64,000 nt of DNA from Candidatus Saccharimonadota bacterium (GCA_016700315.1 CP065013.1:513449-577448), one strand, 5' to 3'. Shown: positions 2,591 through 49,702, numbered from the stretch's first letter. Made by a program: numbers and translations. The notes: a model not told the origin generated them from the letters alone.

Positions 2591-3572
2591 ATGCGCTACA
2601 TCGATATCTATAGAGCCTGGCAAAGCTTCGTAAAGGCTAAAAAATACAGTACTTCGATTGACGAATTTGCCTATTATGTCGAGCAGAATCTTCAGCAACT
2701 TACTCGTGACACTGAAACGAGGACTTACAAACACGGCTCGTACAAAAGAGTTGTAATAAGCGAAAAGAAACGTCGTGATTTAGCGGTGGCTTCGGTCTGT
2801 GATCGTGTTGTTCACCGCTATGTCTACGACGAGTTAGTAGGGATTTTTGATAATTCTTTTGAGCCCGATGTCTTTTCTTGCCGCGAGGGCAAAGGCTTGC
2901 ACAAGGCTCTAGTAAGAACGCAAAAATTGCTGCAAAAATACTATGAATGCTATGTTTGGAGGGCTGATATTACCAAGTTTTTTGACTACGTAGACCAAGA
3001 CAAGCTATTGAGCATTATTGTTAGAAAAATAGATCCAAACAGTGAACTATTTTGGTTGTGCGAGCAGATAATCCAAAGTTATAATTCGAAGCCATCAGCC
3101 ATCAGCCATCAGCCATCAGCCATCAGCTGGCATCCCTATTGGCAATTTGACGTCTCAAATTTTTGCCAACATCTACCTAAATGAGTTCGACCGCTATGTG
3201 CGCCACCGGCTAAAACCTTTGGCATATTTACGCTACGGCGACGATTTCATCCTAATTTGTAAAACAAGAAAACAAGCATATGAGCAGAGGCTGCGGGCAA
3301 AAGAATTTTTGCAAACAGAGCTTGGGCTGAGCCTACACCAAACTAATGATGTTGCAGTAGCTGTTAAGCAGGGCCTACATTTCTTAGGACATGTGATCAC
3401 TTCCAAATTTTTAATAGTTGATAAACAAACCAGCAAAATTGCAGTGGCCAAAGTAAGCATTAAAAATGTAGCCAGCTACCGATCATTATTGCTTCTTGAA
3501 GTACTGCATAAGGAAATTAACTGGGAATTATTACAAATTATTGACAAAATATGTAGTAATGATGTATACTAG
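2591..3572 (+). CDS. DGR-type reverse transcriptase, split into ORFs 2591-3184 and 3147-3572 by a frameshift inside a heptanucleotide repeat
   Basis: RT motifs RRDLAVASVCDRVVH and SCREGKGLHKA are present. GIPIGNLTSQIFANIYLNEFD is encoded at 3129-3191 in the downstream frame and carries the DGR-typical IGxxxSQ motif. YLRYGDDFIL supplies the YxDD box. Removing one 7-nt unit fuses both halves into one ORF of about 324 aa. Confidence 0.85.
3091..3127 (+). repeat. (GCCATCA)x5 perfect heptanucleotide tandem repeat inside the RT gene
   Basis: Read directly from the sequence. It encodes KPSAISHQPSAIS in the upstream frame, and 35 nt is not a multiple of 3. Confidence 0.95.
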
Positions 3573-3597
3573 CGTCTAATTAATAGGAGTTTATCAA

Positions 3598-4437
3598 ATG
3601 TCACAAAGTCATACAGTCCAAGGTCTCTGGATACCCGAGAAGCCAAAGCCAGTTTTTGATGTCAATAGATTTGCCAAAGGAACTATCGATGTTTCGACAG
3701 AAGTCGATAGAGGTATCGAGCTTATTCGTATGGCTGGCGGCTTTAATGGCGGCGGCGATGAGGCTAAGTTACGCAACGACTTTACGACTGACCTTGTGGC
3801 GCTCGAACAAACTGGTTTGGCTATGCGCATCGTGCCTGATGTGCCAGGAACTAATCTACCCTTTAACAGCTTAATAGCCCTAATGGATGGAGTTAGACCT
3901 GAAGGCGTAGAAGAGGCATCTATTTACGATAAATTATGGGTACCAGGTGTAGAGGCTGACAGCCTAACTCCAGAACTACTTGCTGGCCCTGCTAAAAGGG
4001 TAGCCCTAAGAGGCCTGCTACTGAGCGTAAGCTCAGGTGACTATGACCCAGTCTTGCATCACCGAGGCCTACCAGCTGATGACCACGCCAAAGAAATGTA
4101 TGATCCTAGTGCCAAGACTACTCAAACTTCAGCGTTGACTCAAGATATCTCAGCTTTTGAAGCAACCTTCCCCGAACTCGATCTTAGAGGAGCTAGTTAC
4201 CGTGATTACGCGTTTTTGGTTACTGCATTCAGACGGAACTTGCGACCAGAGCCAGGTGCATTACCGCTATCTAGAGACTATATGCGCGATCTAGGCGTGG
4301 GACGCCACAATGTGGGCGGCGGCTCGGTCGTCGCGGGCGTCGACTCGGATGGTGGTTGGGCTCGCTTCGACGGGGGCAGTGGCCACGCGAATGACCTCGC
4401 TGGCGTCGGCCTTTCGGCGGGGCGAAAAGACTCTTAG
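3598..4437 (+). CDS. DGR target (variable) protein with the VR at its extreme C-terminus
   Basis: 279 aa with an RBS-like AGGAG 8 nt upstream. The last 39 codons or so are the VR. The C-terminus GGGSVVAGVDSDGGWARFDGGSGHANDLAGVGLSAGR is Gly/Asp-rich. No signal peptide or TM helix is seen. Confidence 0.8.
   Translation: MSQSHTVQGLWIPEKPKPVFDVNRFAKGTIDVSTEVDRGIELIRMAGGFNGGGDEAKLRNDFTTDLVALEQTGLAMRIVPDVPGTNLPFNSLIALMDGVRPEGVEEASIYDKLWVPGVEADSLTPELLAGPAKRVALRGLLLSVSSGDYDPVLHHRGLPADDHAKEMYDPSAKTTQTSALTQDISAFEATFPELDLRGASYRDYAFLVTAFRRNLRPEPGALPLSRDYMRDLGVGRHNVGGGSVVAGVDSDGGWARFDGGSGHANDLAGVGLSAGRKDS
4311..4427 (+). other. DGR variable region (VR)
   Basis: Ungapped 117-nt match to 4662-4778 at a constant offset of 351. 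There are 15 differences, all at TR adenines. Confidence 0.9.
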
Positions 4438-4661
4438 ACTTTGAGCTTTAATCTTTATTTTCTTCTTTTTTTGTTGCTAAACTGAAATTAGCTTTGTATT
4501 GCCAAGATGATCGCTAGTTTGGGTATATAACTCTGAAATTACGCTGATCGGGAATCAAAGAACAAAGTGTATTTTGCCCCGCGTGCGGCTGCCTACAAAA
4601 ATGAATTAAAACACCTTATGTTCTCGAACATTAGGTTGCTCGAAGTAGGTAGCGAACAAAC

Positions 4662-4778
4662 TGTGGGCGGCGGCTCGATCGTCGCGAGCGTCAACTCGGA
4701 TGATGGTTGGGCTAACTTCGACAGGGACAATGGCAACGCGAATGACAACGCTGGCGTCGGCCTTTCGGCAAGGCAAAA
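4662..4778 (+). other. DGR template region (TR)
   Basis: Non-coding copy of the VR that carries A wherever the VR differs. Its adenines sit in AAC/AAT/GAC-type triplets. The ORF-track ORF 4567-4884 merely mirrors it. Confidence 0.9.
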
Positions 4779-4785
4779 CACTACT

Positions 4786-4820
4786 AAAACCCAGGCCCAT
4801 AAGATAGCCTGGGTTTTTTA
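4786..4820. terminator. Bidirectional stem-loop between TR and avd
   Basis: AAAACCCAGGC-N10-GCCTGGGTTTTTT. It overlaps the avd stop at 4818-4820. Confidence 0.6.
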
Positions 4821-5156
4821 CTTCTCAGATTTCAGCCAACCACCGAGCATCCGGCCTATCTCGAGTGTTTTGGCGTTTATCTGATGTAGCGTGGTTTCGT
4901 TGGCTAGCTTTTGCTCAAGCAGACTACGCAGCAAAAACTGAGCGATCTCAAGCTTGGCTGAAGCCTTAATCAGATAAACTGCCTTATGAGCCTTCGGTGC
5001 GTGTTTGGCCATGATTAGTAGCTCTAGCAGGTCCAGAAGTGAAGTTTCTGTGTGTCTGCCTATGGTTTGCTTTTTGCTAGGATCTAGCTTATCGCAAATC
5101 TTGCAGGTTGCGTTATACAGCTCTTGAACTTTAAGTATTATGCCTAGTTCAAACAT
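4818..5156 (-). CDS. avd: Avd-like four-helix-bundle protein (DGR accessory variability determinant family)
   Basis: 112 aa, predicted all-helical and basic. The C-terminal ...LEIGRMLGGWLKS resembles the four-helix-bundle / 23S rRNA intervening-sequence protein family used by DGRs. It lies adjacent to the TR. Confidence 0.7.
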   Translation of the reverse strand: MFELGIILKVQELYNATCKICDKLDPSKKQTIGRHTETSLLDLLELLIMAKHAPKAHKAVYLIKASAKLEIAQFLLRSLLEQKLANETTLHQINAKTLEIGRMLGGWLKSEK

Positions 5157-11867: not shown

Positions 11868-12292
<425 letters not shown>

Positions 12293-13576
12293 CTAGAAAT
12301 TCTTTCTTAGCCACTCATCTAAACTGCCACCACCACCTGCTGATAGGCACAAAACTAAATCGCCGGCTGCTACATGTTCAGCAATTTCAGACTTTAGTTC
12401 ATCGTTCAATTCGGCAGGTTGTTTATCCGTCGGCTGCTTTACTAACTCGCATAGTTTTGTAGGTGTTAGGTCTTCTAGGCTTTCATCTTCACGTGCGCGG
12501 TAACTTGGGACGATGTAAAATTTCTTAGCACCACTAAATAACTCTTTAAGTTCAGCTTTTATAAAATGCTGGCGGGTGTTGTGTAGGCCCTCGTAGACAA
12601 CTACAAAATTTTCTCCGGCCATTTCTTTAGCCATCTGCAGGGCTCCAGCGATTTTTTCTGGTGTGTGGGCGTAGTCAGAGTAGATATTTTCACTAATTTT
12701 CTCAAAACGGCGTGAAACTCCAGGGAAGCAGTTCATGATATCGGCCAACTTTACAAGATCCTCCTCTGGGAAAAGTTCAGCGGCCGCCTGCATAACCAAC
12801 CTTGCGTTGCGTCGATTAACCTCACCAGCCATAGTAAGAGAGGCCAAACCAAGCGGCTGTTCATTCATGCGTATGATGTCGGAATTAAACGGAAGCTGTG
12901 CCTTTGCGGCGTCAATCTCCCAGCAGATTGTAGTAGCTGATTGCGCAACAAATTGACGGAACGCCTCGAAGTATTTTTGCTCTGTTGGGTAGATGTCTGG
13001 GTGGTCGTAGGCGATGCCGGATATCAGTGACAAATGAGGCTGAAAACTCAAAAAGTTTCGGTCGTACTCGTCACATTCGTAGACGAAGTACTGGCTCTGC
13101 GGGTTGTATTCTCCCATCTCGCCGAATGATAGCTTTGCGCCAACCGAGTAGCTGATAGGCTGTCCAAGTTGTTTGAAAAGCCAGACCATCATTGCAGTGG
13201 TTGTAGTTTTGCCGTGCGTACCAGCAATGGCAATGAGCTTGAGAGATTTTTCACTTATAAGCCAGCTCAAAAACTCATCTCTTTTGGTGACTTTAATGCC
13301 GTTTTGCCGTGCCCAAGCAAGTATTGGATGATCTGCTTGTTCTTTTTCGGCGGCGCTGGTAGTAACCACCCAGTCGACTTTGGCTGTGGCGTGGATTTTA
13401 GCCAGATGACTTTCGTCCTTAGCAATCGCCGCGTCTAATAAACCTTGTTCTTGTACATAGTCGAAGTACTTACTCGCTTGTTTGTCAGAACCCGAGACCC
13501 TGTACCCCGACTGGTTAGCGATAATCGCCAGCGGGCCTATACCTGTGCCACCAATCCCAACGAAGTAGATATGCAT
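12293..13576 (-). CDS. Mur ligase family protein (MurC/Mpl-like)
   Basis: N-terminal IYFVGIGGTGIGPLA and the central P-loop GTHGKTTTT. Confidence 0.7.
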   Translation of the reverse strand: MHIYFVGIGGTGIGPLAIIANQSGYRVSGSDKQASKYFDYVQEQGLLDAAIAKDESHLAKIHATAKVDWVVTTSAAEKEQADHPILAWARQNGIKVTKRDEFLSWLISEKSLKLIAIAGTHGKTTTTAMMVWLFKQLGQPISYSVGAKLSFGEMGEYNPQSQYFVYECDEYDRNFLSFQPHLSLISGIAYDHPDIYPTEQKYFEAFRQFVAQSATTICWEIDAAKAQLPFNSDIIRMNEQPLGLASLTMAGEVNRRNARLVMQAAAELFPEEDLVKLADIMNCFPGVSRRFEKISENIYSDYAHTPEKIAGALQMAKEMAGENFVVVYEGLHNTRQHFIKAELKELFSGAKKFYIVPSYRAREDESLEDLTPTKLCELVKQPTDKQPAELNDELKSEIAEHVAAGDLVLCLSAGGGGSLDEWLRKNF

Positions 13577-14863: not shown

Positions 14864-14869
14864 CAAAAT

Positions 14870-15003
14870 GGTAGTTGGTAGTTGGTAGTTGGCGTAAGTC
14901 TAAACTCGTCCCTAGCTCTTAGCTCCTAGTCCATAGACCCTAGTCCCTAGCTTTTGGCTCAGTACTCACTGAACATGACTCATGTGTCTTGGCTTTCGTT
15001 TCT
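14870..15003. repeat. Heptamer-chain intergenic element (H1)
   Basis: (GGTAGTT)x3 is followed by CCCTAGC TCTTAGC TCCTAGT CCATAGA CCCTAGT CCCTAGC TTTTGGC TCAGTAC TCACTGA ACATGAC TCATGTG TCTTGGC, all in a single 7-nt register. Confidence 0.8.
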
Positions 15004-16895: not shown

Positions 16896-17168
16896 AGTCA
16901 ATAGTTAATAGTTTATGGTTTATAGATAAATACTGATGAGTCTTTGCTGTGTACCTCGCACTCCGTACCGCGTACTGTTCAAATAGAGCCAAGAGTCAAG
17001 AGTCATGAGCCAAGAACTAGGGACTAGGGACCAGCAAGTATTACCCCGTACCTCCTACGGACCAGGGTCTAGGATCTAGGGTCTAATTCATACTTGATAC
17101 TATCTTCGTTTATAATTTAGAGCTTAGGGTTTAGAGTTTTCCCCTCGTTCCTCGTTCCTCCAACCTCG
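16896..17168 (+). repeat. Heptamer-chain intergenic element (H2), left arm of an inverted pair
   Basis: About 39 consecutive 7-nt units in one register, for example AGCCAAG AGTCAAG AGTCATG AGCCAAG AACTAGG GACTAGG GACCAGC. Positions 16903-17151 are the reverse complement of 21704-21966. Confidence 0.85.
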
Positions 17169-17187
17169 GCGTGTTAGAATAAAAGTT

Positions 17188-17940
17188 ATGAACATAATCG
17201 AGGTAAAAAATCTTACAAAAGTTTACAGTGGCAAAAAAGCCGTAGACGGCATAAGTTTTAGCGTTAAAAAAGGCGAAGTTTTTGGCATTTTAGGTCCTAA
17301 TGGGGCCGGCAAGACTACAACTCTGGAAATGCTTGAAGCTCTACGAGAAATCGATGGCGGCGAGGCCTTCATCGACGGCATAAACGTTGCGGAAAAACCT
17401 TACGAAATTCGCCGGATTATCGGTGTACAGCCACAAAGTCCGAGCTTCCAAGACAAAACTAAGCTCACAGAACTGCTAGAAATGTTTTCGGCTGCTTACG
17501 GCGAAAAGGTAAACACCAAGAAATTTCTAGATAGCGTTCAGTTGCTGGATAAAAAAGATTCATTCATAGAGAATCTCAGTGGCGGCCAAAAACAACGTTT
17601 CTCAATTGCGGCAGCTCTGGTTCATCGCCCTAAAGTCTTCTTCCTTGATGAGCCAACCACAGGCCTTGATCCTCAGGCGCGGCGCAATCTGTGGGACCTG
17701 ATCCGCGACATCCAAAAGCGCGGCACTACGGTTATACTTACGACGCACTACATGGACGAAGCCGAACTACTTTGCGACCGTATTGCAATCATGGACAACG
17801 GCCGCATTATCAAGCTCGATACACCTAAGAATCTTATCAAACAATTGCTTGGCAAGGGGTTCAAGAAAGAGCAGCACGTAGAACAAGCAAACTTAGAAGA
17901 TGTTTTTATCGATTTAACCGGTAAGGAGCTACGAGTATGA
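17188..17940 (+). CDS. ABC transporter ATP-binding protein (ABC-2 exporter type)
   Basis: Walker A GPNGAGKTT, signature LSGGQKQR, Walker B VFFLDEPTTGLD. Confidence 0.9.
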   Translation: MNIIEVKNLTKVYSGKKAVDGISFSVKKGEVFGILGPNGAGKTTTLEMLEALREIDGGEAFIDGINVAEKPYEIRRIIGVQPQSPSFQDKTKLTELLEMFSAAYGEKVNTKKFLDSVQLLDKKDSFIENLSGGQKQRFSIAAALVHRPKVFFLDEPTTGLDPQARRNLWDLIRDIQKRGTTVILTTHYMDEAELLCDRIAIMDNGRIIKLDTPKNLIKQLLGKGFKKEQHVEQANLEDVFIDLTGKELRV

Positions 17941-19052
17941 GTGTCAAGCGTAAACTATACACCGTCTATGCTTTTACTAAAATCAATACTAAACGGTTTT
18001 TTCGCGATCGATTAGCCATCTTCTTTACGGTCATTTTTCCTCTCATCTTTCTGTTTATATTCGGTGGACTTTTTGGCAAAGACACAAGTGTAAGTTTCAA
18101 CATCGCGTTACTCAATAACTCTGGCAGCCAATTTTCTAAGGATTTTGACAAAAACATCCGCGAAGCAAAAGTTTTCAAGGTAAGTGACAAGGCAAATAAT
18201 CTTGATGAGGCCAAGGAAAGAATGAAGCGGGGCGAGCTTGATGGCATAATTATTCTCCCTGAGTCTTTTGGTCAAATCACTGCCGGGCAGACCACACCAA
18301 GCGGTCAAGCAGAAGTACTGTACGCCCAAAACAACGACCAGGCTGGAACGGCTCTGACCTCTGTACTGCAGAGCGTCATGAAGGACATCAACAAGGGCTT
18401 TGGGACGGTCAGTGAGCCGTTCACTGTAAAGGCCGAGGCTAGTAACGACAAGGGACTGTCTAGGCTGGACTATACTTTTGCTGGTCTGCTAGGCTTTTCT
18501 ATCCTAGGAGTTGGTATATTTGGACCTATGAATGTCTTTCCAGAGCTAAAAAAACAAGGAATCTTGCGCCGACTGCATACTACAACATTGCGAGTGTGGC
18601 AGTATTTCTTATCAACCGCAGCATCACAAGTGGCGGTAGGGATACTCTCTTTTGCCATTCAGTTCGCCGTTGCCATTGTGCTGTTTGATCTAAAAGTAGT
18701 TGGAAATTATCTCGAGTTGATCGTTTTCTTGATGCTTAGTACTGTCATGATGCTTGGTATCGGTTTGGCACTTGGTGGCTGGGCTAAGAATGAGCGACAG
18801 GTAGCTCCGCTCGGAAATCTTATCACTTTTCCGATGATTTTTCTTTCAGGCGCCTTCTTTCCAAGATTCATCATGCCAGAGTGGCTACAAAAAGTTAGCG
18901 ATTATATCCCTCTAACTCCGATTATCGACGGAGTTAGACTTATCGCAACAGAAGGTAAGCACCTGACCGAAATTGGATCGCAGGTCGGGCTAGTAGCGGC
19001 CTGGTTAGTGGTAGTCTATCTCATTGCCTTCCGCGTCTTCCGCTGGGAGTAG
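17937..19052 (+). CDS. ABC-2 family transporter permease
   Basis: 4-nt overlap with the ATPase gene. An N-terminal TM helix, a large loop, then five TM helices. Confidence 0.8.
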   Translation: MSVKRKLYTVYAFTKINTKRFFRDRLAIFFTVIFPLIFLFIFGGLFGKDTSVSFNIALLNNSGSQFSKDFDKNIREAKVFKVSDKANNLDEAKERMKRGELDGIIILPESFGQITAGQTTPSGQAEVLYAQNNDQAGTALTSVLQSVMKDINKGFGTVSEPFTVKAEASNDKGLSRLDYTFAGLLGFSILGVGIFGPMNVFPELKKQGILRRLHTTTLRVWQYFLSTAASQVAVGILSFAIQFAVAIVLFDLKVVGNYLELIVFLMLSTVMMLGIGLALGGWAKNERQVAPLGNLITFPMIFLSGAFFPRFIMPEWLQKVSDYIPLTPIIDGVRLIATEGKHLTEIGSQVGLVAAWLVVVYLIAFRVFRWE

Positions 19053-19097
19053 CAGGACTACCTTGCAAACAGAGCTTAAGCGTGATATAGTATATTT

Positions 19098-19394
19098 ATG
19101 CCTAAAGTTAATCCCAATCAACCAAGACTTTTTGCAGATGATGATATGGGCAAATTGTTAACTACTGCCGTTCGTGCAGGCGAACTAATAGTGGAAGCTA
19201 CTATGGATGCAAGTATACCCGGCGCAACCATGCCGACTGATTTAAGACGAAAAATTGATACTAGTCTAGGAATTAGCCCAGACCTACCTGAAGAAGATAA
19301 GCAAAAAGCTCGAGAAGCGGCTAGGTTAGCAAGTGCTAGTAGAACTAGGTTGAGGGAAGAAGCGGCTGCTCGGCACCAGCCTAACAGGTATTAA
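19098..19394 (+). CDS. Hypothetical protein
   Basis: 98 aa, charged. No family recognised. Confidence 0.45.
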   Translation: MPKVNPNQPRLFADDDMGKLLTTAVRAGELIVEATMDASIPGATMPTDLRRKIDTSLGISPDLPEEDKQKAREAARLASASRTRLREEAAARHQPNRY

Positions 19395-19416
19395 TTTATT
19401 CTTAGGCTAACATAAG

Positions 19417-20745
19417 ATGGCAAAAACTCGACCAAACCCAATGCAAGATCCTCTCTTCCCAACAGCTGGTGGAGAGTTTTTTCTCCCTCAAGCAGAGGCT
19501 AGCAATGAAGTTCAACCGTTAGTAAGGAACTTGCAGCTAGTTAACGTTTTAGACTATTTTACAGAGATAGCTAGACTAGAAACGTTTATAAAGTATGGAA
19601 GTACCAAAGACGGTAAAAAAACTCTAGCAAAGCAGTACGGCGGACAAGCTGGGGCTGAGGATGTGTTGCTTAGGTCGCAGTTACGACGCGTAGAACTAGA
19701 CAAAGCAGCAAAACTTGAATACATGCGCGCCGAGGGGTTGTTTGTAGAGTTAGATGCTGGCAAGATAACCCAAAGGGATGCGTGGGAGAAGGCAAGGTCT
19801 GGCTACAGGTCTTTTGCTGAGGAATATGGCTTCACACACCAAAATTCACAGCGTGCAAAAATACGAGAGGAATTGCTAGCTTCTGTCAGACAAAGACAGG
19901 ACTTGGTTACATCAGTACGTAAAAAGTCGGATCTATCTAAAGACGATAATGATAAGCCCAAGCCTATTGATGATCAACTCGACACATGGACTAAGCTACA
20001 AGTAATAAAAAATGATCCTCGGGCCGGTTTTATACCCGCTACAAATCACGAAAAAACAATTGTTCTGGCTTGGTTGGATTACCTGGACAACCCCGTATAT
20101 CCATTTGGTATCAGAAACCAAACCATAGAAATCTATCTTTCCCAGATAGCAAAACATGGCGCTCAAGGCAGAGACTTTGGGGTTCAGGCAGCCGTCAGTC
20201 GTGCATACGAGTTGCAGGACATTCTAACGGATGCTGAGATCTCACTACAACTCTTAAAAGCCTTCCAGTTAGAAGTCGCAGATACGCCTAACCCAGACGT
20301 TTACCTTGAGCAAGAATTTGGCGAGAGCCATCCAGCTTACGCAGTATTGATACGATTTAGAGATCTAAGAGAGCTTGCCCTCACCGGTACAGTAGAAGGT
20401 TTGCGAGGTTCAGCTCTTCGTAGCACACGAAATGAAGAAGCTGTCCCTGATGAGCTAATAGGTCAAAAAAATAAAGTCATTGAAGGCCCCTATACATCAT
20501 TGAAGCTCACCAAGGCTATCGCAAGACGAATTAAGACACAGCCCAAAAAACTGAAAGTTGGTGATGTGCGTAATGACTTTGAAGAAGCGATTGCTGATCA
20601 GGAAATGCGTCGTGATTTTGCCAGAGCCCGCCTAGAAGATATGGCTACAGGAGCTGATGAAAAAGACGAATTGTTGCTAGCCTCTTCAACTGTTGCTCGC
20701 TCCATTCTAGGCTTAAGCAATGAGCTAGATTTGGTAACTGTGTAA
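19417..20745 (+). CDS. Hypothetical protein (442 aa)
   Basis: Long clean ORF with no recognisable motifs. Its stop overlaps the dus start. Confidence 0.6.
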   Translation: MAKTRPNPMQDPLFPTAGGEFFLPQAEASNEVQPLVRNLQLVNVLDYFTEIARLETFIKYGSTKDGKKTLAKQYGGQAGAEDVLLRSQLRRVELDKAAKLEYMRAEGLFVELDAGKITQRDAWEKARSGYRSFAEEYGFTHQNSQRAKIREELLASVRQRQDLVTSVRKKSDLSKDDNDKPKPIDDQLDTWTKLQVIKNDPRAGFIPATNHEKTIVLAWLDYLDNPVYPFGIRNQTIEIYLSQIAKHGAQGRDFGVQAAVSRAYELQDILTDAEISLQLLKAFQLEVADTPNPDVYLEQEFGESHPAYAVLIRFRDLRELALTGTVEGLRGSALRSTRNEEAVPDELIGQKNKVIEGPYTSLKLTKAIARRIKTQPKKLKVGDVRNDFEEAIADQEMRRDFARARLEDMATGADEKDELLLASSTVARSILGLSNELDLVTV

Positions 20746-21731
20746 TGCAGAAATTACTTAAGCCCTTTTTTGTCCTAGCGCCGATGGACGATGTTACGGA
20801 CTGCGTTTTTCGGCAAATCGTGGCTGATTGTGCTAGCCCTGACCTTTTTATGACGGAGTTTATCAACTGCGAGAGTTTGCAAAGTGCTGGCCGTAAAGCC
20901 ACCTATACTCGCACGCTTTATAACGACAAATCAAACCAGGTAATAGCTCAGATATGGGGCAAAATGCCAGAGCATTTTGAGAAATCTGCTCACGAGCTTA
21001 TGCAAATGGGCTTTCACGGTATAGACATAAACTTTGGCTGCCCAGAGAAAACCGTCGTCAAGAACGATTGCTGTAGCGCTATGATCCGTCCTGAAGGCCG
21101 AGAAGCGGCCCTAGAGCTGATTAGGGCTGCCAGGCGGGGAATTGGCTGTGACGGGTTTTTGAGTGTCAAAACAAGGCTCGGATTTAACGAGATAGACTAT
21201 TCTTGGCACGAGCTTCTACTCAAAGAGGGCTTGCAGATGCTAACTGTCCACGTGAGGACACGCAAAGAAATGAGCAATGTGCCGGCCAACTATGAGGCAA
21301 TTAGGCCAATCGTTAAGCTGCGTGATAAGTTAGCACCTAGCACCAAGATTGTCCTAAATGGTGATATCGAAAACCGCTGTCATGGCGAGGAGCTGGCTGC
21401 AAAATACGGTGTTGATGGCCTGATGATTGGGCGTGGAATCTTCCACGATCCGTTTGCTTTTGCTGGCAACAGTCAGTGGAATGCGATGGACGCAGACCAA
21501 AAGATCGGGCTTTTTGTAAAACACCTCCAGCTTTTTAAGGCCACTTGGCCGAATGGTGAACGTAGCTATCAAACCATGAAAAAGTTTGCCAAAATTTATA
21601 TCAACGGCTTCGACGGCGCCAAAGCTATTCGTGAACAAATCATGCAAACTAACAGCGTCGACGAAGCTCTAGAGCTGATAGCTAGTCCGACAAAGGCGGA
21701 CTTGGAACGAGGGGAAAACTCTAAACCCTAA
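20745..21731 (+). CDS. dus: tRNA-dihydrouridine synthase
   Basis: LAPMDDVTD...DINFGCP...VHVRTR is typical of the Dus FMN TIM barrel. The last 9 codons or so lie inside repeat H3. Confidence 0.85.
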   Translation: MQKLLKPFFVLAPMDDVTDCVFRQIVADCASPDLFMTEFINCESLQSAGRKATYTRTLYNDKSNQVIAQIWGKMPEHFEKSAHELMQMGFHGIDINFGCPEKTVVKNDCCSAMIRPEGREAALELIRAARRGIGCDGFLSVKTRLGFNEIDYSWHELLLKEGLQMLTVHVRTRKEMSNVPANYEAIRPIVKLRDKLAPSTKIVLNGDIENRCHGEELAAKYGVDGLMIGRGIFHDPFAFAGNSQWNAMDADQKIGLFVKHLQLFKATWPNGERSYQTMKKFAKIYINGFDGAKAIREQIMQTNSVDEALELIASPTKADLERGENSKP

Positions 21732-22006
21732 GCTCTAAATTATAAACAAAGATAGTATCAAGTATGAATTAGACCCTAGACCCTAGACCCTAGACCCTGG
21801 TCCGTAGGAGGTACGGGGTAATACTTGCTGGTCCCTAGTCCCTAGTCCCTAGTTCTTGGCTCATGACTCTTGACTCTTGGCTCTATTTGAACAGTACGCA
21901 GTACGGAGTACGAGGTACGCAGCAAAGAGTCATCAGTATTTATCTATAAACCATAAACTATTAACTCAACCCTGGTCCCTAATCCCTAAACACTCTAACC
22001 TCTAAC
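21704..22006 (-). repeat. Heptamer-chain intergenic element (H3), right arm of the inverted pair plus an extra module
   Basis: Contains (TAGACCC)x4, (TCCCTAG)x3 and GTACGCA GTACGGA GTACGAG GTACGCA. It differs from H2 by SNPs and by two exact 7-nt indels. Confidence 0.85.
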
Positions 22007-22339
22007 CTAGTTTCTTGAGCCCCAGCTCGACATCATGTCTAAGATGTCACAGAGGCCTTGACCCTTATGTGTCAGAGAGTAGCGATATCGCGGAGGGTGC
22101 TTACAATAAAGTGTTTTCTCAACGATCTTTTCTCTTTGAAGTTTGTCTAAGCGGGCACTTAGCGTGCGTGGGCTTATTCCGACTAAGCTAGACTCCAACT
22201 TGCTAAAGGGCAAGCCTTGTTCGGAAATTTGAGCAAGTATTAGAGCTGTCCATTTGTCACCCAAAATCTGAAGAGTGGCATCAATAGAGTTCAGTTTGTT
22301 TTTGGGCTTAGCTTTGGTTAGTCGGGTAATAATTGCCAT
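22007..22339 (-). CDS. HxlR-family winged-helix transcriptional regulator
   Basis: LQILGDKWTALIL...GISPRTLSARLDKLQREKIVEK...YSLTHKG. Confidence 0.8.
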   Translation of the reverse strand: MAIITRLTKAKPKNKLNSIDATLQILGDKWTALILAQISEQGLPFSKLESSLVGISPRTLSARLDKLQREKIVEKTLYCKHPPRYRYSLTHKGQGLCDILDMMSSWGSRN

Positions 22340-22663: not shown

Positions 22664-22739
22664 GGGGGTGTAGCTCAGGGGTTAGAGCAGCGGGCTCATA
22701 ACCTGTTGGTCGTTGGTTCAATTCCAACCACCCCCACCA
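22664..22739 (+). tRNA. tRNA with CAT anticodon (Met or Ile2)
   Basis: Manual cloverleaf: GGGGGTG / GCTC-AGGGGTTA-GAGC / loop CTCATAA / GTTGG-TTCAATT-CCAAC / CACCCCC-ACCA. Confidence 0.85.
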
Positions 22740-22789: not shown

Positions 22790-23251
22790 ATGCGGCAAAA
22801 ATTCGAAAAAGTCTATGAGCTGATCAAAAAATATGAGCTGAACGATGTACGCAACATTGGTTTAATGGTTTTTGTTGTCATGGTTTTGGCGGTGACGTGG
22901 AGTGGCTCTAAAGCGGTGCAGCAGAACTATGAGCTCTCAAAACGTGCTAGTAAAATCGAACAAGAAAATGCGGTTTTGGAGCTAGAGAACCAAACTCAGA
23001 AGCTCAAAAACGAATACTTTAAAACAGATGAATACAAAGAGCTAGAAGCCAGAAGGGTATTGGGGCGGGCAGCACCCGGAGAGACGGTTTACATTATCCC
23101 CAAGTCATTGGCGCTTTCTAAGGTAAAAATACCCGAGTCCTCAGCAAAAGTCGAAGAAGCTGCACCGCAAACTGAGGTAAAAAAATCTCGAACCCAAGCT
23201 AATTTTGAATCATGGATGGATTTTTTCTTCGGTAGACAAAATAGCTTGTAG
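22790..23251 (+). CDS. Septum formation initiator (FtsB/DivIC family)
   Basis: One TM helix followed by the coiled coil NYELSKRASKIEQENAVLELENQTQKLKNE...EARRVLG. Confidence 0.7.
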   Translation: MRQKFEKVYELIKKYELNDVRNIGLMVFVVMVLAVTWSGSKAVQQNYELSKRASKIEQENAVLELENQTQKLKNEYFKTDEYKELEARRVLGRAAPGETVYIIPKSLALSKVKIPESSAKVEEAAPQTEVKKSRTQANFESWMDFFFGRQNSL

Positions 23252-23254: not shown

Positions 23255-23490
23255 ATGCGTAGGGCGGCTGGGGTTGAGTTAATAGTTTATGGTTTATAGA
23301 AAACTGCTGAATACCGTTTACTGAAGACTGTTTACTGTGTATCGAATGAAACTAATACGTACCGTGTACTGTGCTAGGTTAGAGGTTAGAGTGATTAGGA
23401 AGGCTACGGACCAGGGACTAGGGTCTAGGGACTATTTTATAATTTAGAGCTTAGGATTTAGAGTTTTCCCCTCACGTTCACTGTTATAAT
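23255..23490 (+). repeat. Heptamer-chain intergenic element (H4)
   Basis: GTTAATA GTTTATG GTTTATA ... AGGTTAG AGGTTAG ... CTAGGGT CTAGGGA ... GAGCTTA GGATTTA GAGTTTT CCCCTC. It shares its end modules with H2 and H3. Confidence 0.8.
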
Positions 23491-23516
23491 GTAAGAAGTA
23501 AAACTAGGGGAGTACT

Positions 23517-24044
23517 ATGAATCTAGATTTTTTGAATCGAGCCACAGAAACAGCTAGAGCAATTGCCAAAGTTGCAGGCCCTGGGATAGAAGGTCAAGTT
23601 AGTTTTACAGAATACGAGGAAAAAGGCTGGAAGTACGTAGTAGTAGCCGCAGATGTTAGTGGTGATCCTGAGGTTTTGAAGCAAGGTAAGCACGCTATGC
23701 ATATTCACGAAAAAGGTGATTGCGAATGTGAAGGATTTAAGTGCGCCGGCGGGCATTTTGATCCAGGGGTATCGGGCAATTCTGACCCCGATGCCAACCA
23801 CGGCTATCACGCTGGCGATCTGCCAAATCTCGAAGTCGACACATCTGGGCACGGCACAATGAGGACGATTACAACTCGTGTTACTTTAAGCGACGGCCCT
23901 GTCTCCATATTATCGGCTGAATCAGCACCAGAAGGCACGTCCGTCATGATACATGCAAATGAGGACCCTTATACACCTGGAGAGTCTGGTTCTGGCCACA
24001 GTGGCGGCCCTCGTCTAGCTTGCGGCAAAATAGAACGTCAATAA
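23517..24044 (+). CDS. sodC: Cu/Zn superoxide dismutase
   Basis: MHIHEKGDC, GGHFDP, HAGDLPNL, HANEDPY and GGPRLACG. No obvious signal peptide. Confidence 0.85.
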   Translation: MNLDFLNRATETARAIAKVAGPGIEGQVSFTEYEEKGWKYVVVAADVSGDPEVLKQGKHAMHIHEKGDCECEGFKCAGGHFDPGVSGNSDPDANHGYHAGDLPNLEVDTSGHGTMRTITTRVTLSDGPVSILSAESAPEGTSVMIHANEDPYTPGESGSGHSGGPRLACGKIERQ

Positions 24045-25696: not shown

Positions 25697-25738
25697 AAGA
25701 AAAAAGCCCCAGATAAACTGGGACTCTTTTCTTGGTAG
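25697..25738 (-). repeat. 42-bp perfect copy of the sequence immediately 3' of tRNA-fMet (CCA tail plus terminator)
   Basis: Identical to 26581-26622. Confidence 0.85.
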
Positions 25739-26580: not shown

Positions 26581-26583
26581 AAG

Positions 26584-26610
26584 AAAAAAGCCCCAGATAA
26601 ACTGGGACTC
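26584..26610 (-). terminator. Terminator after tRNA-fMet
   Basis: The minus strand reads GAGTCCCAG-TTTAT-CTGGGGC followed by TTTTTT. Confidence 0.55.
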
Positions 26611-26616
26611 TTTTCT

Positions 26617-26691
26617 TGGTAGCGGGGGCAGGACTTGAACCTGCGACCTCATGGTTATGAGCCATGCGAGCTGCCACTGCTCCACCCCGCG
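26617..26691 (-). tRNA. tRNA-Met (CAT), initiator-like
   Basis: CGCGGGGTGGAGCAGTGGCAGCTCGCATGGCTCATAACCATGAGGTCGCAGGTTCAAGTCCTGCCCCCGCTACCA. It closely resembles E. coli tRNA-fMet and has an unpaired C1 x T72 position. Confidence 0.9.
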
Positions 26692-30615: not shown

Positions 30616-30692
30616 GGCAGGGTAGCTCAGTTGGTTAGAGCACAGGACTCATAAGCCTGGGGTCACGAGTTCAAATCTCGTCCCTGCTACCA
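30616..30692 (+). tRNA. tRNA with CAT anticodon (Met or Ile2)
   Basis: GGCAGGG-TA-GCTCAGTTGGTTAGAGC-A-CAGGA-CTCATAA-GCCTG-GGGTC-ACGAG-TTCAAAT-CTCGT-CCCTGCT-ACCA, followed by a terminator hairpin (CTCACCA-ACAG-TGGTGAG plus T-run). Confidence 0.85.
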
Positions 30693-40620: not shown

Positions 40621-40639
40621 AATAAAGTATAATCAGCTT

Positions 40640-42104: not shown

Positions 42105-42320
42105 ATGGATAAGTACCCAATTTCACCAGAAGAAAGAAAAAAGATTGAGGCCGCCGATGAAGCTTCTAGAGCTGAGGCTGCGCAAATCCTAGGTCCTCAG
42201 GTTGCCGAACAGTTTTTCGCTTACACCGATGCTAAAAGACAAGAACTAAAACCATCCAGCATCACTCGTGAAGAGGCCTACATGTACAGGCAAAATACCG
42301 GTAGCGAAGAAGGCTTTTAA
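42105..42320 (+). CDS. Hypothetical protein (71 aa)
   Basis: ORF only. Its stop codon lies within the putative target-site duplication of the transposon. Confidence 0.4.
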   Translation: MDKYPISPEERKKIEAADEASRAEAAQILGPQVAEQFFAYTDAKRQELKPSSITREEAYMYRQNTGSEEGF

Positions 42321-42324
42321 AAAA

Positions 42325-43363
42325 CCAGCTTCACATAACTCCTAATCTGTAGTCTCATCCAATTAGCAGAGGTTGCGTCAGCAGCCTCTGTTGTGGTTTT
42401 GTGTAGTGTATTGAGGGTTTCTTTGGTTGTAGCTGGTAGCATATTAATCCGCTGAGTAGGTTGACTACGAAGTTGTTAGGGCTTCGGTGTCTAGTGTGTT
42501 CGATCTGTTGGGTATTTTTGAGCTGATCGTTGATGGTCTCGATGATGGATCGCTTTCTCAGCATCAGTTTATCCCAGAGGCTCATCAGATGATTCTTCAT
42601 GTTGCGTCTAATGCCTGTGATGAGATGAACACCCTTTTGGAGTGGTGAAAGAAATAGCTCGTGTCCAATGTAACCTTTGTCAGCATAGAGTTTGCCCGTT
42701 AGCTTTTCTGTCAGTTTGAGCATCAGTGCTTGATTGTTGTCTGGGGCGTGACCTGGTGAGAGCAGGAATGAGATGATCTCACCTCGTTCATTGAAGGTCA
42801 GATGCAGTTTCAAACCAAAGAACCAGCCCATGGAGCTCTTGCCTCTGGTTGCAATGCCTTTGAAGACTCGATGCTTCCAGATCCGCTTGTTGTTACAAAC
42901 ATCCAGTGTCGTACTGTCCACGAAGTTGACGAGTGTGGCTGGTGCGAGAAGACTGATCATGAGAGCAAGGAGTGGCAACATACTCTCACGCATCAGTCTG
43001 AGGAATCGTGTATAGCTAACCCTGTTTGGGAAGGCATCAACCAGATGCATGCAGATATGTTCAAGGTAGTATTTCTTGAACTGACGATAGCCGCTGGCAT
43101 GAAACCAGATACAGATAGTCAGTCATTACTTCAGAGAGTGTCATGGCACCCTGTTTGTTACGAACCCGTTCTCCAGATTCAATCTGTTTTGATCTCCACT
43201 CAGGCTCAAATTTCTTGCAGAACTCGTCAACGATGTAGAATAGTGTTACTAGCTCCATATACGTGTCTCCTTTTTGTTTTATGTTTTGTTACAGAAACAG
43301 AATAACAGGGCTGACGCCCTGTTATCTACAAAACAAAATGGGGACTCTTATGTGAAGCTGGGG
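42325..43363 (-). mobile_element. IS982-family insertion sequence, copy A
   Basis: About 1.04 kb with terminal inverted repeats (CC)CCAGCTTCACATAA. It is identical over the aligned parts to copy B at 45383-47535. Confidence 0.85.
42355..43258 (-). pseudogene. IS982-family DDE transposase, frameshifted (65-aa plus 231-aa ORFs)
   Basis: FHASGYRQFKKYY can be read only after a frame change. A TGAC TGAC tandem duplication at about 43118-43125 accounts for this. DDE-region motifs are ...DSTTLDVC...ADKGYIG... Confidence 0.8.
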
Positions 43364-43530
43364 TTACCTACTATGCTGGAAAGATCGAGCGTGGCCTATC
43401 AACGCTTGAGCCAAAGCCACTTAATAGCACCTTTAATGAGTCCGCCAATATGAGTGATGCTGACTTACGAAAATTATCGACGTTAGCAATTAAGCTGCCA
43501 GGACTTGACCGAAATCTTACCAAAATCAAA

Positions 43531-44151
43531 CTACTGAGCTAGCTCGATCGTATTAAGCAGTGCTGTATCGCCCTGATTGACTAGCTGGAACGCTGTACCT
43601 TCTGGTTGACAGTTGCTTTCAGCATCACCGTATGTACCAACACAAGCTGCCCCTGTAGCAAGACTACTGAAAGCCCAGCCAGTGTAATAATAGTAGGGGC
43701 CAACTTTCTTACCTTCTTTGATCATATCGCCAGCAAAAGGCTTTGTGCTATTAGTAGATCTGTATAGGTTACCTATTGCGTATTCTGAAAGACCGTCAGC
43801 GTACTTGTCATAATCAGTCCTATACTGAACATCTGTCCCGGTAGGCTTGGCAAAGAAAGCCAATGTATCACCGTGAATTGTGTACTTGATGTCAGTCAAG
43901 CCGCTAGGGGCCTTGAAGCGCAGTCCCCACTCTTTCACTACAAAGTAACCCCCGTTAGGGTCAGTTTTATTCGTGGGCTCAGCAGTAGCCTCTTCCTTCT
44001 GCTCAATAGTGTTGGTTTGGGAGGTTGGGTATTCAGTTGTTTTAGTTTTTTGGCGGTTATAGACGAGCCAGCCAACAGTACCAAGCAAACCAATCACTAC
44101 AATAACAACCAGTATTTCTACAACCCCAAAACCCTTTTGATTATTTTTCAT
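43531..44151 (-). CDS. Type IV pilin-like protein (prepilin N-terminal domain)
   Basis: The start at MKNNQKGFGVVEILVVIVVIGLLG fits the G|FxxxE class III signal. Located inside the composite transposon. Confidence 0.6.
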   Translation of the reverse strand: MKNNQKGFGVVEILVVIVVIGLLGTVGWLVYNRQKTKTTEYPTSQTNTIEQKEEATAEPTNKTDPNGGYFVVKEWGLRFKAPSGLTDIKYTIHGDTLAFFAKPTGTDVQYRTDYDKYADGLSEYAIGNLYRSTNSTKPFAGDMIKEGKKVGPYYYYTGWAFSSLATGAACVGTYGDAESNCQPEGTAFQLVNQGDTALLNTIELAQ

Positions 44152-44251
44152 CTCAGCAGCCCACACCTTTCTTAAAGTTTGAAATCGTTTGCCCCCAGTA
44201 TAATCCTACAGCTTAATGTTTGTATATAGGACTAGGTTTCATTACTTAGTT

Positions 44252-44500
44252 CTAAAGACATTTATACATATCAGGCGCAAAAGACCTGAAAATGACGATT
44301 ATAAGTGCTAAAACTAAAATCATTCTTACATTTTTTTGATGTAAGGATTTTTTCATTTCAGGATTTGAAATTGATTTATTAGCTTTAGTCTCTTTAGCAA
44401 TTATTATTATAGCTACAAATATTAAAAGTAGTGTGATCACATCTTTAAAGTCGAGTACTCTAGAACAACTGTACATTGTCATTTTTGCGATAATATCCAT
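44252..44500 (-). CDS. Small hypothetical membrane protein
   Basis: 82 aa with two hydrophobic helices, in a very AT-rich segment. Confidence 0.35.
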   Translation of the reverse strand: MDIIAKMTMYSCSRVLDFKDVITLLLIFVAIIIIAKETKANKSISNPEMKKSLHQKNVRMILVLALIIVIFRSFAPDMYKCL

Positions 44501-44634
44501 TACTAATTTATCCTTTACTTTATTTAGTAATACTTAAACTGGCTAAGTATATAATTAGTATAATAGTTAATATTACAAGTATTTTTTTAATCATTATAGT
44601 ATTAACATTAACACAATTCGTGTATTATTAGCTA

Positions 44635-45048
44635 GTGAAACAGCAAGAAGAATTATACTTATCAAAATTAGCAGTGTTTGGAGTAGGGTTTTTGTGTGCT
44701 ATGATAGCTTTTCAAAAAGATTTGTTTATTTTTACTGCGATCCCTCTGTTGCCATTTGTAGTATTACTGTTGTTAGCCGCAAGGTCGAGCGCCGTAAAGA
44801 TAATTAATAACCAAATGTCTACTACTAAAACAGCTAAAGAAATTTACATTCTGCTTTTGATCTTAGTGCCATTCAATTACTTAAGTATGCCACATGTCGC
44901 ATCAAATGGCCCCAGTAAAGCTTTCGTCTTCATCGAAAACGCTTCCGATCAGTTGCTGGCTACTTCTTTTAAAGCATTTTTAATAAGCGGACTGCTGATT
45001 TTGATCTTGACCGTAGTAATCGTTTTCTTAGAACCAAGAAAAAATTAA
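44635..45048 (+). CDS. Hypothetical membrane protein
   Basis: 137 aa with four hydrophobic segments, AT-rich. Followed by the terminator GACTTTCT-N8-AGAAAGTC plus a T-run at about 45127-45157. Confidence 0.4.
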   Translation: MKQQEELYLSKLAVFGVGFLCAMIAFQKDLFIFTAIPLLPFVVLLLLAARSSAVKIINNQMSTTKTAKEIYILLLILVPFNYLSMPHVASNGPSKAFVFIENASDQLLATSFKAFLISGLLILILTVVIVFLEPRKN

Positions 45049-45159
45049 AAAACTACGATTGTTCGAGCATACGGATACTAACAATATCTAAGCCTTAGTT
45101 TGGTGATAAAGATCGAAGTATACTTCGACTTTCTGCACCATAGAGAAAGTCTTTTTTTA

Positions 45160-45382
45160 AGACGGAAGTTACGGAGGGTCGTGAGAGGTTCGACCGACTT
45201 TCAGCCGGCCCGCAATAACATCTTTGAAAACAAGTTTTCAAGACTTGATTGCCTTGCAGTAAGTCCTTGGCTCGTTTCACCCCGACCCCTCGGCCGAGGG
45301 TGTTGCGTGTCCGAGGCCAACTCCGCTAGAACCTATTTTGAGGAAAAATGTTGAATGAGACAAGCCCCGCCGCCTAGTATAA
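45160..45382 (+). ncRNA. Candidate structured RNA fragment (tmRNA-5'-like?), cut off by IS982 copy B
   Basis: GC-rich island next to AT-rich DNA. GGGTCGTGAGAGGTTCGAC at 45176 resembles the tmRNA 5' consensus GGGG...GGxTTCGAC. The 14-nt palindrome CCCTCGGCCGAGGG is at 45287-45300. No 3' tRNA-like half is present. Confidence 0.2.
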
Positions 45383-46235
45383 CCCCAGCTTCACATAAGA
45401 GTCCCCATTTTGTTTTGTAGATAACAGGGCGTCAGCCCTGTTATTCTGTTTCTGTAACAAAACATAAAACAAAAAGGAGACACGTATATGGAGCTAGTAA
45501 CACTATTCTACATCGTTGACGAGTTCTGCAAGAAATTTGAGCCTGAGTGGAGATCAAAACAGATTGAATCTGGAGAACGGGTTCGTAACAAACAGGGTGC
45601 CATGACACTCTCTGAAGTAATGACTGACTATCTGTATCTGGTTTCATGCCAGCGGCTATCGTCAGTTCAAGAAATACTACCTTGAACATATCTGCATGCA
45701 TCTGGTTGATGCCTTCCCAAACAGGGTTAGCTATACACGATTCCTCAGACTGATGCGTGAGAGTATGTTGCCACTCCTTGCTCTCATGATCAGTCTTCTC
45801 GCACCAGCCACACTCGTCAACTTCGTGGACAGTACGACACTGGATGTTTGTAACAACAAGCGGATCTGGAAGCATCGAGTCTTCAAAGGCATTGCAACCA
45901 GAGGCAAGAGCTCCATGGGCTGGTTCTTTGGTTTGAAACTGCATCTGACCTTCAATGAACGAGGTGAGATCATCTCATTCCTGCTCTCACCAGGTCACGC
46001 CCCAGACAACAATCAAGCACTGATGCTCAAACTGACAGAAAAGCTAACGGGCAAACTCTATGCTGACAAAGGTTACATTGGACACGAGCTATTTCTTTCA
46101 CCACTCCAAAAGGGTGTTCATCTCATCACAGGCATTAGACGCAACATGAAGAATCATCTGATGAGCCTCTGGGATAAACTGATGCTGAGAAAGCGATCCA
46201 TCATCGAGACCATCAACGATCAGCTCAAAAATACC

Positions 46236-47339: not shown

Positions 47340-47556
47340 AAAATACCCAACAGATCGAACACACTAGACACCGAAGCCCTAACAACTTCGTAGTCAACCT
47401 ACTCAGCGGATTAATATGCTACCAGCTACAACCAAAGAAACCCTCAATACACTACACAAAACCACAACAGAGGCTGCTGACGCAACCTCTGCTAATTGGA
47501 TGAGACTACAGATTAGGAGTTATGTGAAGCTGGGGTTAAAAAAAGTAAAATGATAG

Positions 47557-49664: not shown

Positions 49665-49702
49665 TCTCCTGGAGTCCAAGAGCCGCGAAAAGGATTGTTA
49701 CA

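Follow-up and report, generated by a model that had tools for sequence, protein, structure and literature searches.

The stretch of DNA analysed here comprises 64,000 nt of a Candidatus Saccharimonadota bacterium (GCA_016700315.1, CP065013.1:513449-577448); the whole stretch is referred to as the window, and its guanine-plus-cytosine (GC) content is about 44%. Positions 23,255 to 23,490 of the window lie between a DivIC-family gene (22790-23251) and sodC (23517-24044), and hold a chain of heptanucleotide repeats followed by the sodC promoter. Four such heptamer chains, labelled H1 to H4, are present in the window. H1 lies in the gap between a convergent MFS gene and a 79-aa open reading frame (ORF), a gap that differs in length among strains. 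H2 lies between a divergent 199-aa gene (minus strand) and an ABC ATPase gene (plus strand) and is the left arm of an inverted-repeat pair with H3, which lies between the convergent genes dus (plus strand) and HxlR (minus strand). H4 is the chain upstream of sodC. All four chains are non-coding and lie between ORFs, the sole coding overlap being the last 7 codons and the stop codon of dus, which are encoded by the 3' end of H3.

Organisation of the heptamer chains

Tandem Repeats Finder (TRF) detected period-7 arrays, i.e., head-to-tail 7-nt units, across H1 to H4. Identity at a lag of 7 nt was 0.62 in H1, 0.58 in H2, 0.60 in H3 and 0.51 in H4, compared with a background of 0.253 +/- 0.036 (maximum 0.37) in 607 sampled intervals. 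The ends of H2, H3 and H4 are formed by two shared modules, a 24-nt 5' module (AGTTAATAGTTTATGGTTTATAGA) and a 31-nt 3' module (TTTAGAGCTTAGGRTTTAGAGTTTTCCCCTC), each of which occurs at exactly three sites in the 64 kb (Table 1) and at none expected, in shuffled sequences in the case of the 5' module. With its TTTATAA prefix the 3' module extends to 38 nt, and the H2 and H4 copies of this longer form are 97% identical. An earlier reading made from the DNA alone (the sequence-only reading) had described the family as modular, with the ends of H4 shared with H2 and H3, and these exact modules, in three copies each, bear that description out. The 27-nt 5' string beginning TTGAG that it had assigned to all three copies was found in H3 and H4, but H2 reads TCAATAGTTAATAG at that place.

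H2 and H3 are inverted copies of one another over about 250 nt, at 79-96% identity. What H4 has in common with them is its ends; its middle (about 23340-23403) did not align with theirs and is nevertheless heptadic, as had been proposed. A 26-nt stretch of H4 (23374-23399), which contains CTAGGTTAGAGGTTAGAGTG (23374-23393), is 96% identical to positions 21985-22010 of H3. There it belongs to an extra outer chain (21967-22010) that also includes CTAGGTTAGAGGTTAGAGTG, so that the H3 counterpart sits outside the 5' module, across the shared core from its position in H4, again in agreement with the earlier description. H1 resembled only the middle block of H2 and H3 (83-87% identity in a self-comparison of the window). 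H3 also contains (GGGTCTA)4 at 21774-21797, a G-quadruplex-type motif.

Table 1. Positions of the heptamer chains, the promoter boxes near them and related features, in window coordinates
Feature	Position	Strand	Remarks
H1	14865-14970		partial, diverged chain; (TGGTAGT)3.4 and CCCTAG-type units; TRF rows 14869-14892 and 14911-14952
H2	16896-17160	+	5' module 16903-16926; 3' module 17109-17146 (31-nt form 17116-17146); TATAAT 17111-17116
H3	21704-22010	-	3' module 21709-21746 (31-nt form 21709-21739), which contains the dus stop 21729-21731; 5' module 21943-21966; minus-strand TATAAT 21739-21744 (plus-strand coordinates)
H4	23271-23473	+	5' module 23277-23300; 3' module 23436-23473 (31-nt form 23443-23473); TATAAT 23438-23443
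H2-H3 interior	17147-21708		4.6 kb; ABC ATPase, ABC-2 permease, two strain-variable ORFs, dus
ABC ATPase native proximal promoter	17172-17180	+	extended -10 TGTTAGAAT, 7 nt before ATG 17188; no Shine-Dalgarno sequence (SD); outside the shared modules
sodC native proximal promoter	23482-23490	+	extended -10 TGTTATAAT, 26 nt before ATG 23517; followed by SD AGGGGAG 23506-23512
Leaderless-layout examples	17172-17187, 19083-19097, 40622-40639, 54220-54250
bAvd gene	4818-5156	-	part of the diversity-generating retroelement

Variation among relatives and strains

Homologues of the Dus (56-60% identity) and SodC (70%) proteins of the window came from sources whose names include Candidatus Saccharibacteria, Saccharimonadales and Patescibacteria, which makes a Saccharibacteria-like genome the probable source of the window. 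Three comparison contigs (denoted by L-numbers, as are all comparison loci) lacked the repeat at the corresponding places. No heptamer chain precedes the ABC gene of L062 (Dus 72% identical), which has a terminator-like hairpin and cTGTATAAT-N6-ATG there. In L067 (SodC 82% identical) CTGTTACAATG follows immediately after the DivIC stop codon; compared with this repeat-free arrangement, the window has an insertion of about 230 nt, H4 included, that separates the DivIC stop from CTGTTATAATG. There is no repeat between dus and HxlR in L064 (Dus 70% identical), where the two genes share 4 nt, and H3 is therefore likewise a lineage-specific addition. The Dus of the window exceeds its homologues in length by about 13 residues, and H3 supplies its final 7. 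Alignment with the relatives thus shows that H2 to H4 occupy gaps that are empty or nearly so in related species, and that the copies abut the native promoters or stop codons of their neighbours without replacing them.

Contigs of the same species were retrieved from many samples by exact-protein look-ups, and 15 distinct copies of the chains were aligned. The end blocks were essentially invariant and the middles variable. Unit counts differed among strains, with (ACTAGGG)n at n = 2, 3 or 5 and (GGGTCTA)n at n = 3 or 4; indel steps of 7, 14, 21 and 35 nt separated the copies, and larger indels of 22 and 104 nt, which are not multiples of 7, were also present. Some alleles carry heptadic GTACnnC insertions (21 and 35 nt), the 5' sub-block exists in two types set apart by a 14-nt difference, and L058 has a further internal deletion. 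Two alleles were found at the sodC locus: that of the window, with a GTTAGAG-type middle, and a longer one with an H2-type middle (L001-L003 and L005), the spacing between the module anchors being 185 nt in the former and 252 nt in the latter. A repeat body designated '281' lay beside the 199-aa flank in L035, L041 and L050 but beside the HxlR flank in L037, and blocks have therefore moved between the inverted copies. As far as the aligned alleles show, the copies change fast, with 7-nt units gained and lost and whole blocks exchanged. The modularity of the family, which these sister-strain alleles strengthen, can be attributed to recombination mosaics formed on slippage-prone arrays.

Contigs often break at the repeats (L004, L006, L008, L039-L044 and L059-L061). 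One scaffold, L009, has a run of N about 250-320 nt upstream of sodC and fuses the long H4 allele with the 5' half of the short one, which suggests that both H4 alleles coexist in its source sample (ERZ15186117).

A complete diversity-generating retroelement (DGR) occupies positions 2591-5156 of the window. Its reverse transcriptase (RT) is split into ORFs 2591-3184 and 3147-3572 by an (AGCCATC)5 array at 3090-3124, and removal of one AGCCATC unit restores a single RT ORF with IGNLTSQ...YGDDF motifs. The sister strain L072, which has an intact 345-aa RT, carries 13 units, compared with 5 in L069, L073, L074 and the window; heptamer slippage is therefore active elsewhere in this species. The variable repeat (VR, 4306-4427, at the 3' end of the target gene 3598-4437) differs from the template repeat (TR, 4657-4778) at 17 positions, 16 of them at TR adenines. 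It is possible that the AGCCATC tract acts as an on/off frameshift in the DGR RT.

The two inverted chains H2 and H3 enclose a 4.6-kb segment that was found in both orientations. The order 199-aa gene (minus strand), H2, ABC ATPase to dus, H3, HxlR (minus strand) is that of the window and of L035, L036, L041, L048 and L050. In L037, a 12.3-kb contig that includes both junctions, the order is HxlR, repeat, ABC ATPase to dus, repeat, 199-aa gene, i.e., the segment is flipped, and L046 contains the junction dus, repeat, 199-aa gene of the flipped arrangement. Between L036 and L046 identity is 99.75% in the flank and reaches 100% in the interior, yet the two differ in relative orientation. In total, the inverted orientation was seen in contigs from two to three other assemblies; L038, which also looks inverted, leaves the expected flank after 150 nt and was discounted. 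The relatives L062 and L064 share the orientation of the window, which is therefore taken to be ancestral.

Pfam scans of about 50 ORFs of the window found no serine or tyrosine recombinase, invertase, integrase or Xer-type gene; the only recombination-type enzymes detected were DDE and Mutator transposases, at 42.3-47.3 kb, about 20 kb away. The 199-aa, 98-aa and 442-aa proteins had no Pfam match. Because no invertase- or integrase-type gene was present among the scanned ORFs, general homologous recombination is the likeliest mechanism of inversion. Site-specific recombination was considered, as all apparent crossovers fall in the inner 44-85 nt, and was rejected, since the events were too few for it and the scans showed no recombinase gene. 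In either orientation the ABC gene and the 199-aa gene keep their proximal promoters, and expression need not be altered by the flip.

The inversion, which is seen in contigs and from them extended to genomes, is likely to be real. The alternative is that all of the genomes have the orientation of the window and that the inverted repeat was traversed wrongly during assembly; this would affect the inversion only and would leave the satellite character of the repeats, the slippage and the block exchange standing. Several points weigh against the inversion in this way: the orientation calls all come from short-read assemblies, for which inverted repeats are a classic source of ambiguity, and these assemblies often break at the repeats or, as in the L009 scaffold, join two H4 alleles across a run of N. 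Three body alleles each occur in both orientations, as assembly noise would also give, every apparent crossover is located within the identical inner tract, which is where a mis-join in the assembly graph would be expected, and L038 diverges from its expected flank. However, the identical inner-end tract of H2 and H3 is just 44 nt, in the window and in L037 alike, and L037 links a copy-specific single-nucleotide polymorphism (SNP; CTTCG) to the opposite, dus, flank across it. A tract of 44 nt would probably be shorter than the final k-mer size of such assemblies. No mis-join is possible if the final k was at least 47, and without a real inversion no read would contain the k-mer that joins the SNP to dus in L037. 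L037 is also consistent over its 12.3 kb through both junctions, and the inverted contigs come from three independent assemblies. An assembly artefact is accordingly regarded as the less likely account, though one with a real chance of being correct.

Within the inverted segment, the ORFs between the ABC-2 permease gene and dus (19098-20745) are strain-variable cassettes without a Pfam match. They encode proteins of 98 and 442 aa in the window, L039, L040, L048, L060 and L061, of 98 and 428 aa in L059, of 107 and 313 aa in L001, L035, L036 and L046, and of 91 and 246 aa in L037 and L038; L064 has none.

Promoter boxes and competing explanations

The sequence-only reading had drawn attention to a TATAAT in the terminal module, 72 nt from the ABC ATPase start in H2 and 74 nt from the sodC start in H4, and had proposed a portable promoter and leader carried by the repeat. 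The coordinates and both spacings are correct, and the H3 module does point antisense into the 3' end of dus, with the dus stop codon inside the module. The hexamer is exact in H2, H3, H4 and all 15 strain alleles. In H2 and H3 it forms part of TTCATA-18-TATAAT, which matched a sigma-70-like site at 10 of 12 positions in a promoter scan, and H4 has neither a -35 nor a TG. Overall the scan returned no enrichment of such sites (18, compared with 15.2 expected), and TATAAT occurs at 50 sites in the window. The spacing of 72 or 74 nt is accounted for by the 30 nt from the TATAAT to the end of the 3' module plus the 41-43 nt from the module end to each ATG, which is the native core-promoter region.

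The ABC ATPase gene and sodC each have an independent promoter box between the repeat and the ATG (Table 1); that of sodC is one of just four TGNTATAAT sites in the 64 kb. Such proximal boxes are frequent in the window: among 61 crude gene calls, 22 had a TAnnnT ending 5-8 nt before the start (mode 6), compared with 7.6 expected (Poisson P ~1.6e-5). The genes concerned usually lack an SD, and their boxes are often TG-extended, with a weak TTG at the -35 position. Given these start-proximal -10 boxes and the missing SDs, leaderless transcription is probably common here, perhaps in about a third of the genes, and the ABC ATPase mRNA is predicted to be leaderless. In the case of sodC, the leader predicted from the TATAAT of the element contains UUUUCCCCUC, which pairs with the SD at -22.1 kcal/mol, whereas the proximal transcript has a predicted energy of -2.3 kcal/mol and leaves the SD open.

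Part of the 3' module has a wider distribution. A 23-mer, TTTAGAGCTTAGGRTTTAGAGTT, was found exactly in 24 unrelated metagenome-assembled genomes (MAGs; loci L011-L034), always inside intergenic heptad chains of the TTTAGAG type. The genomes belong to Bacteroidota, Chloroflexota, Patescibacteria, Omnitrophota, Planctomycetota, Gammaproteobacteria and others. In most cases the 23-mer closes a T/G/A-rich heptad chain on its downstream side, with the chain stopping just beyond it, and similar units (GArTTTr TTTAGrA) stand ahead of it. At 10 of the 24 loci, which are sites between housekeeping genes, a start codon on the same strand follows 5-27 nt downstream; examples are secY/adk, grpE/dnaJ, mraY/murD and a four-helix-bundle gene/comM. 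Three of the 24 loci have a strong hairpin, with an inverted chain upstream, and no Rfam family was matched among the 24. Its spread would be consistent with a shared function or with a shared mutational process.

If the repeat were a portable promoter with a leader, the TATAAT of the 3' module would start transcription about 65 nt upstream of the adjoining gene and, in H3, would give an antisense RNA over the 3' end of dus. Several observations are consistent with this: the hexamer is invariant in every copy and allele seen, the H2 and H3 sites are the best match in a 10-kb scan, promoters in this genome seem to depend mainly on the -10 box, the -35 position showing just a weak TTG, so that a lone TATAAT could fire, and in other phyla the 23-mer is often placed, like a leader, within 5-27 nt of the start codon that follows. 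The extended -10 boxes of the ABC gene and sodC are, however, nearer to the start codons and are conserved in the repeat-free relatives, which makes the proposal unlikely. The ABC start has no SD and lies at the modal leaderless spacing, and a 65-nt leader would probably be poorly translated; the H4 site has neither -35 nor TG; and the predicted element-derived sodC leader would sequester the SD. Furthermore, there are just three copies, in divergent, convergent and tandem contexts, one of them directed into a coding region, and neither the frequency of TATAAT in the window nor the yield of the promoter scan sets these sites apart. The comparative evidence therefore upholds the modular part of the sequence-only reading and does not support its promoter and leader, although incidental promoter activity of the element TATAAT is possible.

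The explanation favoured here, and probably the correct one, is that H2 to H4, with the fragment H1, are a recombining, lineage-specific intergenic heptanucleotide satellite, a mosaic of the kind of the short tandemly repeated repetitive (STRR) sequences, and mainly a source of structural variation instead of a designed regulatory cassette. In each copy, short tandem arrays built from differing heptanucleotides would be strung together between two conserved, less repetitive end blocks. Units would be gained and lost by slipped-strand mispairing, and blocks exchanged between copies by ectopic recombination or gene conversion, giving mosaic alleles; since H2 and H3 are inverted, RecA-type homologous recombination between them would flip the 4.6-kb ABC-dus segment. 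The terminal TATAAT would be part of the AT-rich repeat, its spacing being a by-product of a repeat that ends upstream of compact native promoters. Some findings speak against this explanation, in addition to those raised for the inversion. It does not account for the seeding of the first copies at three nearby loci. Both terminal modules are invariant or nearly so in all alleles, which could mean function and not the mere absence of slippage; no sigma-70-like site in the 10 kb scanned scored above the TATAAT of H2 and H3, which matches at 10 of 12 positions; and the terminal module is not dismissed entirely because the 23-mer recurs across 24 MAGs, a hint of a conserved role that a satellite would leave unexplained.

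A programmed regulatory element is improbable but deserves mention. Under this hypothesis the heptad arrays would be binding sites or G-quadruplex tracts, H2 and H3 would form a reversible switch that rewires the ABC-dus operon (e.g., by placing it downstream of HxlR), and unit number would tune activity. The three body alleles beside the 199-aa flank each occur in both orientations, near-identical strains differ by the flip alone, both being what frequent, reversible switching would give, and the flipped state makes HxlR, ABC to dus and the 199-aa gene co-directional. The terminal modules are conserved, (GGGTCTA)4 and (ACTAGGG)5 fit the G3N4 x4 motif, and G-rich heptamer repeats form G-quadruplexes in Xanthomonas and Nostoc (PMC4692102). 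On the other hand, neither the segment nor its surroundings contain an invertase, integrase or Xer-type gene, both promoters travel with their genes so that nothing is disconnected by the flip, the G-quadruplex motif content is inconsistent among copies and strains, and both orientations were not seen in one sample, the dus and HxlR look-ups having given only contigs that end at the repeats. A bolder version holds that the heptamer chains are a functional fast-switching system in Saccharibacteria: H2 and H3 would be a reversible switch, slippage would toggle genes (as in the DGR RT with 5 or 13 units), and the terminal heptad motif GArTTTr TTTAGrA TTTAGAG CTTAGGr TTTAGAG, which many phyla share a short way before start codons, would be a recognised cis-element, possibly a factor-bound leader, and not a convergent satellite; this is considered more speculative still. 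Least probable, and very unlikely, is a miniature mobile element, similar to miniature inverted-repeat transposable elements (MITEs) or to the repetitive extragenic palindromes (REP) and bacterial interspersed mosaic elements (BIME), that transposed to three places between genes. In its favour, there are several copies, their ends are defined and conserved, and the unrelated intergenic sites that they occupy are empty in relatives; the modular make-up also recalls BIME mosaics. Yet no copy has terminal inverted repeats (the ends read AGTTAATAG... and ...TTTTCCCCTC), comparison of filled and empty sites (window versus L062, L064 and L067) revealed no target-site duplication, the copies form no stable hairpin (fold z-scores of at least 0), all of them fall inside a 9-kb stretch of the 64-kb window, the rest of which has none, and no associated transposase was found.

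No copy at a non-orthologous locus emerged from searches of viral, metagenome, plasmid and phage collections. Patterns of the 3' module gave no match in two viral and metagenome scans and a single one in a third metagenome scan, an H2 orthologue; a distant blastn search against plasmids and phages returned none. A genome-collection scan, made with the 23-mer of the 3' module only, returned no locus with the flanks of this element and did not recover the source species. Two further candidates were rejected. A structured RNA was discounted, as Rfam scans at gathering and E-value thresholds found only tRNAs and the folds of H2 (both strands) and H4 were no better than those of shuffled sequences (z-scores +0.47, +1.06 and +1.62), and a terminator scan found none inside the elements.

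Other features and comparison with known systems

A few further features of the window were recorded. At 42315-47543, an inverted pair of 856-nt sequences (42511-43366 and 45380-46235; 100% identical), each with a DDE_Tnp_1_3 transposase, is nested in a second inverted pair of 204 nt, flanks a pilin-like (N_methyl) gene and adjoins a Mutator-family transposase; it is either a pair of insertion sequences (IS) or a composite element, or else an assembly duplication. Long poly-T and poly-G runs in degenerate low-complexity sequence at 11876-12310 and 49684-49897 are probably sequencing or assembly artefacts; at the place of the first, L036 has a gene for a 180-aa KTI12/AAA-type protein between Exo_endo_phos and Mur-ligase genes. 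An exact 42-nt direct repeat (25697-25738 and 26581-26622), the second copy of which abuts the 3' end of a tRNA-Met gene (26617-26691, minus strand), brackets 842 nt with a 158-aa ORF, and the neighbouring genes differ in strain L004; the pair may be an att-like remnant. Three tRNA genes with CAT anticodons lie within 8 kb (22664-22739, 26617-26691 and 30616-30692) and are presumably those of the initiator, the elongator Met and the Ile2 precursor.

The analysis removes a tempting but unsupported promoter annotation and points to the probable promoter build in a poorly known lineage, in which promoters have extended -10 boxes, and those placed 5-8 nt ahead of the start codon, of which there are many, would give leaderless mRNAs. 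It also indicates that heptanucleotide satellites in the small genome of an uncultured lineage are hot spots of strain variation, through slippage, block exchange and, likely, operon-scale inversion. For metagenome assembly, contigs break or may be mis-oriented at such repeats. The findings bear, too, on the long-standing question of why 7-nt repeats abound in some bacteria.

Recombination between inverted repeats flips segments in IS- or rRNA-operon-mediated inversions and in the flip-flop of the plastid inverted repeat. As in those cases, the inverted repeats here (about 250 bp, 79-96% identical) enclose a 4.6-kb segment seen in both orientations with the same gene content, and no dedicated recombinase lies nearby; unlike them, the repeats are heptamer satellites and not genes or IS, and the orientations are derived from metagenome contigs. 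Of the features of an inverton, inverted repeats around a segment that occurs in both orientations were found (in short-read contigs), whereas a dedicated serine or tyrosine recombinase was absent from the scanned ORFs and the flip neither joins a promoter to a gene nor parts the two. The BIME and REP of enterobacteria are modular intergenic mosaics of short motifs, and the motif combinations differ between copies there as here, but the present elements lack palindromic units, do not fold into a stable hairpin (z of at least 0), are of very low copy number and have a heptadic sub-structure.

The GGGNATC-type heptamer repeats of Xanthomonas and Nostoc form G-quadruplexes (Rehm et al. 2015, PMC4692102). 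They resemble the present chains in being non-coding G3N4 heptamers of variable unit number, and (GGGTCTA)4 fits the G-quadruplex motif. In the present chains, though, just some sub-arrays are G-rich, and the motif, known here as a sequence motif, occurs in H3 and in the (ACTAGGG)5 alleles and is absent from H2 and H4 of the window.

The closest likeness is to the intergenic heptanucleotide arrays of cyanobacteria (STRR), Beggiatoaceae and Bacteroidetes, which form mixed assemblages, are polymorphic in 7-nt steps, are missing from orthologous sites in relatives and have been proposed to act in slippage, translation and rearrangement (PMC4679880; bioRxiv 10.1101/2022.06.06.494920). The study of the TAACTGA repeats (MacGregor 2015, PMC4679880) describes 'assemblages of heptamer repeats' and also, in Elizabethkingia and Microcystis, intergenic regions that carry repeats and are almost identical. 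Like the STRR, the long simple-sequence repeats (Mrazek et al. 2007) and the TAACTGA repeats, H1 to H4 are intergenic 7-nt tandem arrays with different heptamers side by side; they share with these the 7-nt-step indels, the contig breaks, the shorter, repeat-free gaps in the closest relatives and the suggested role in rearrangement. Judged by these characters, the elements are of the heptanucleotide-repeat kind. They differ in that the arrays are short (2-5 units) and joined into a composite of about 200-300 bp with two conserved end blocks and three local copies, in that the units are CTAGGGA/T, CCAAGAG, GTACYSC and TTTAGAG in place of those of STRR1-3 and TAACTGA, and in that the composite does not stand immediately before start codons, since native promoters intervene. 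What is new relative to known heptamer repeats is thus the host, a probable Saccharibacteria/Patescibacteria lineage, the composite multi-copy organisation, and the evidence for recombination between copies and for inversion.

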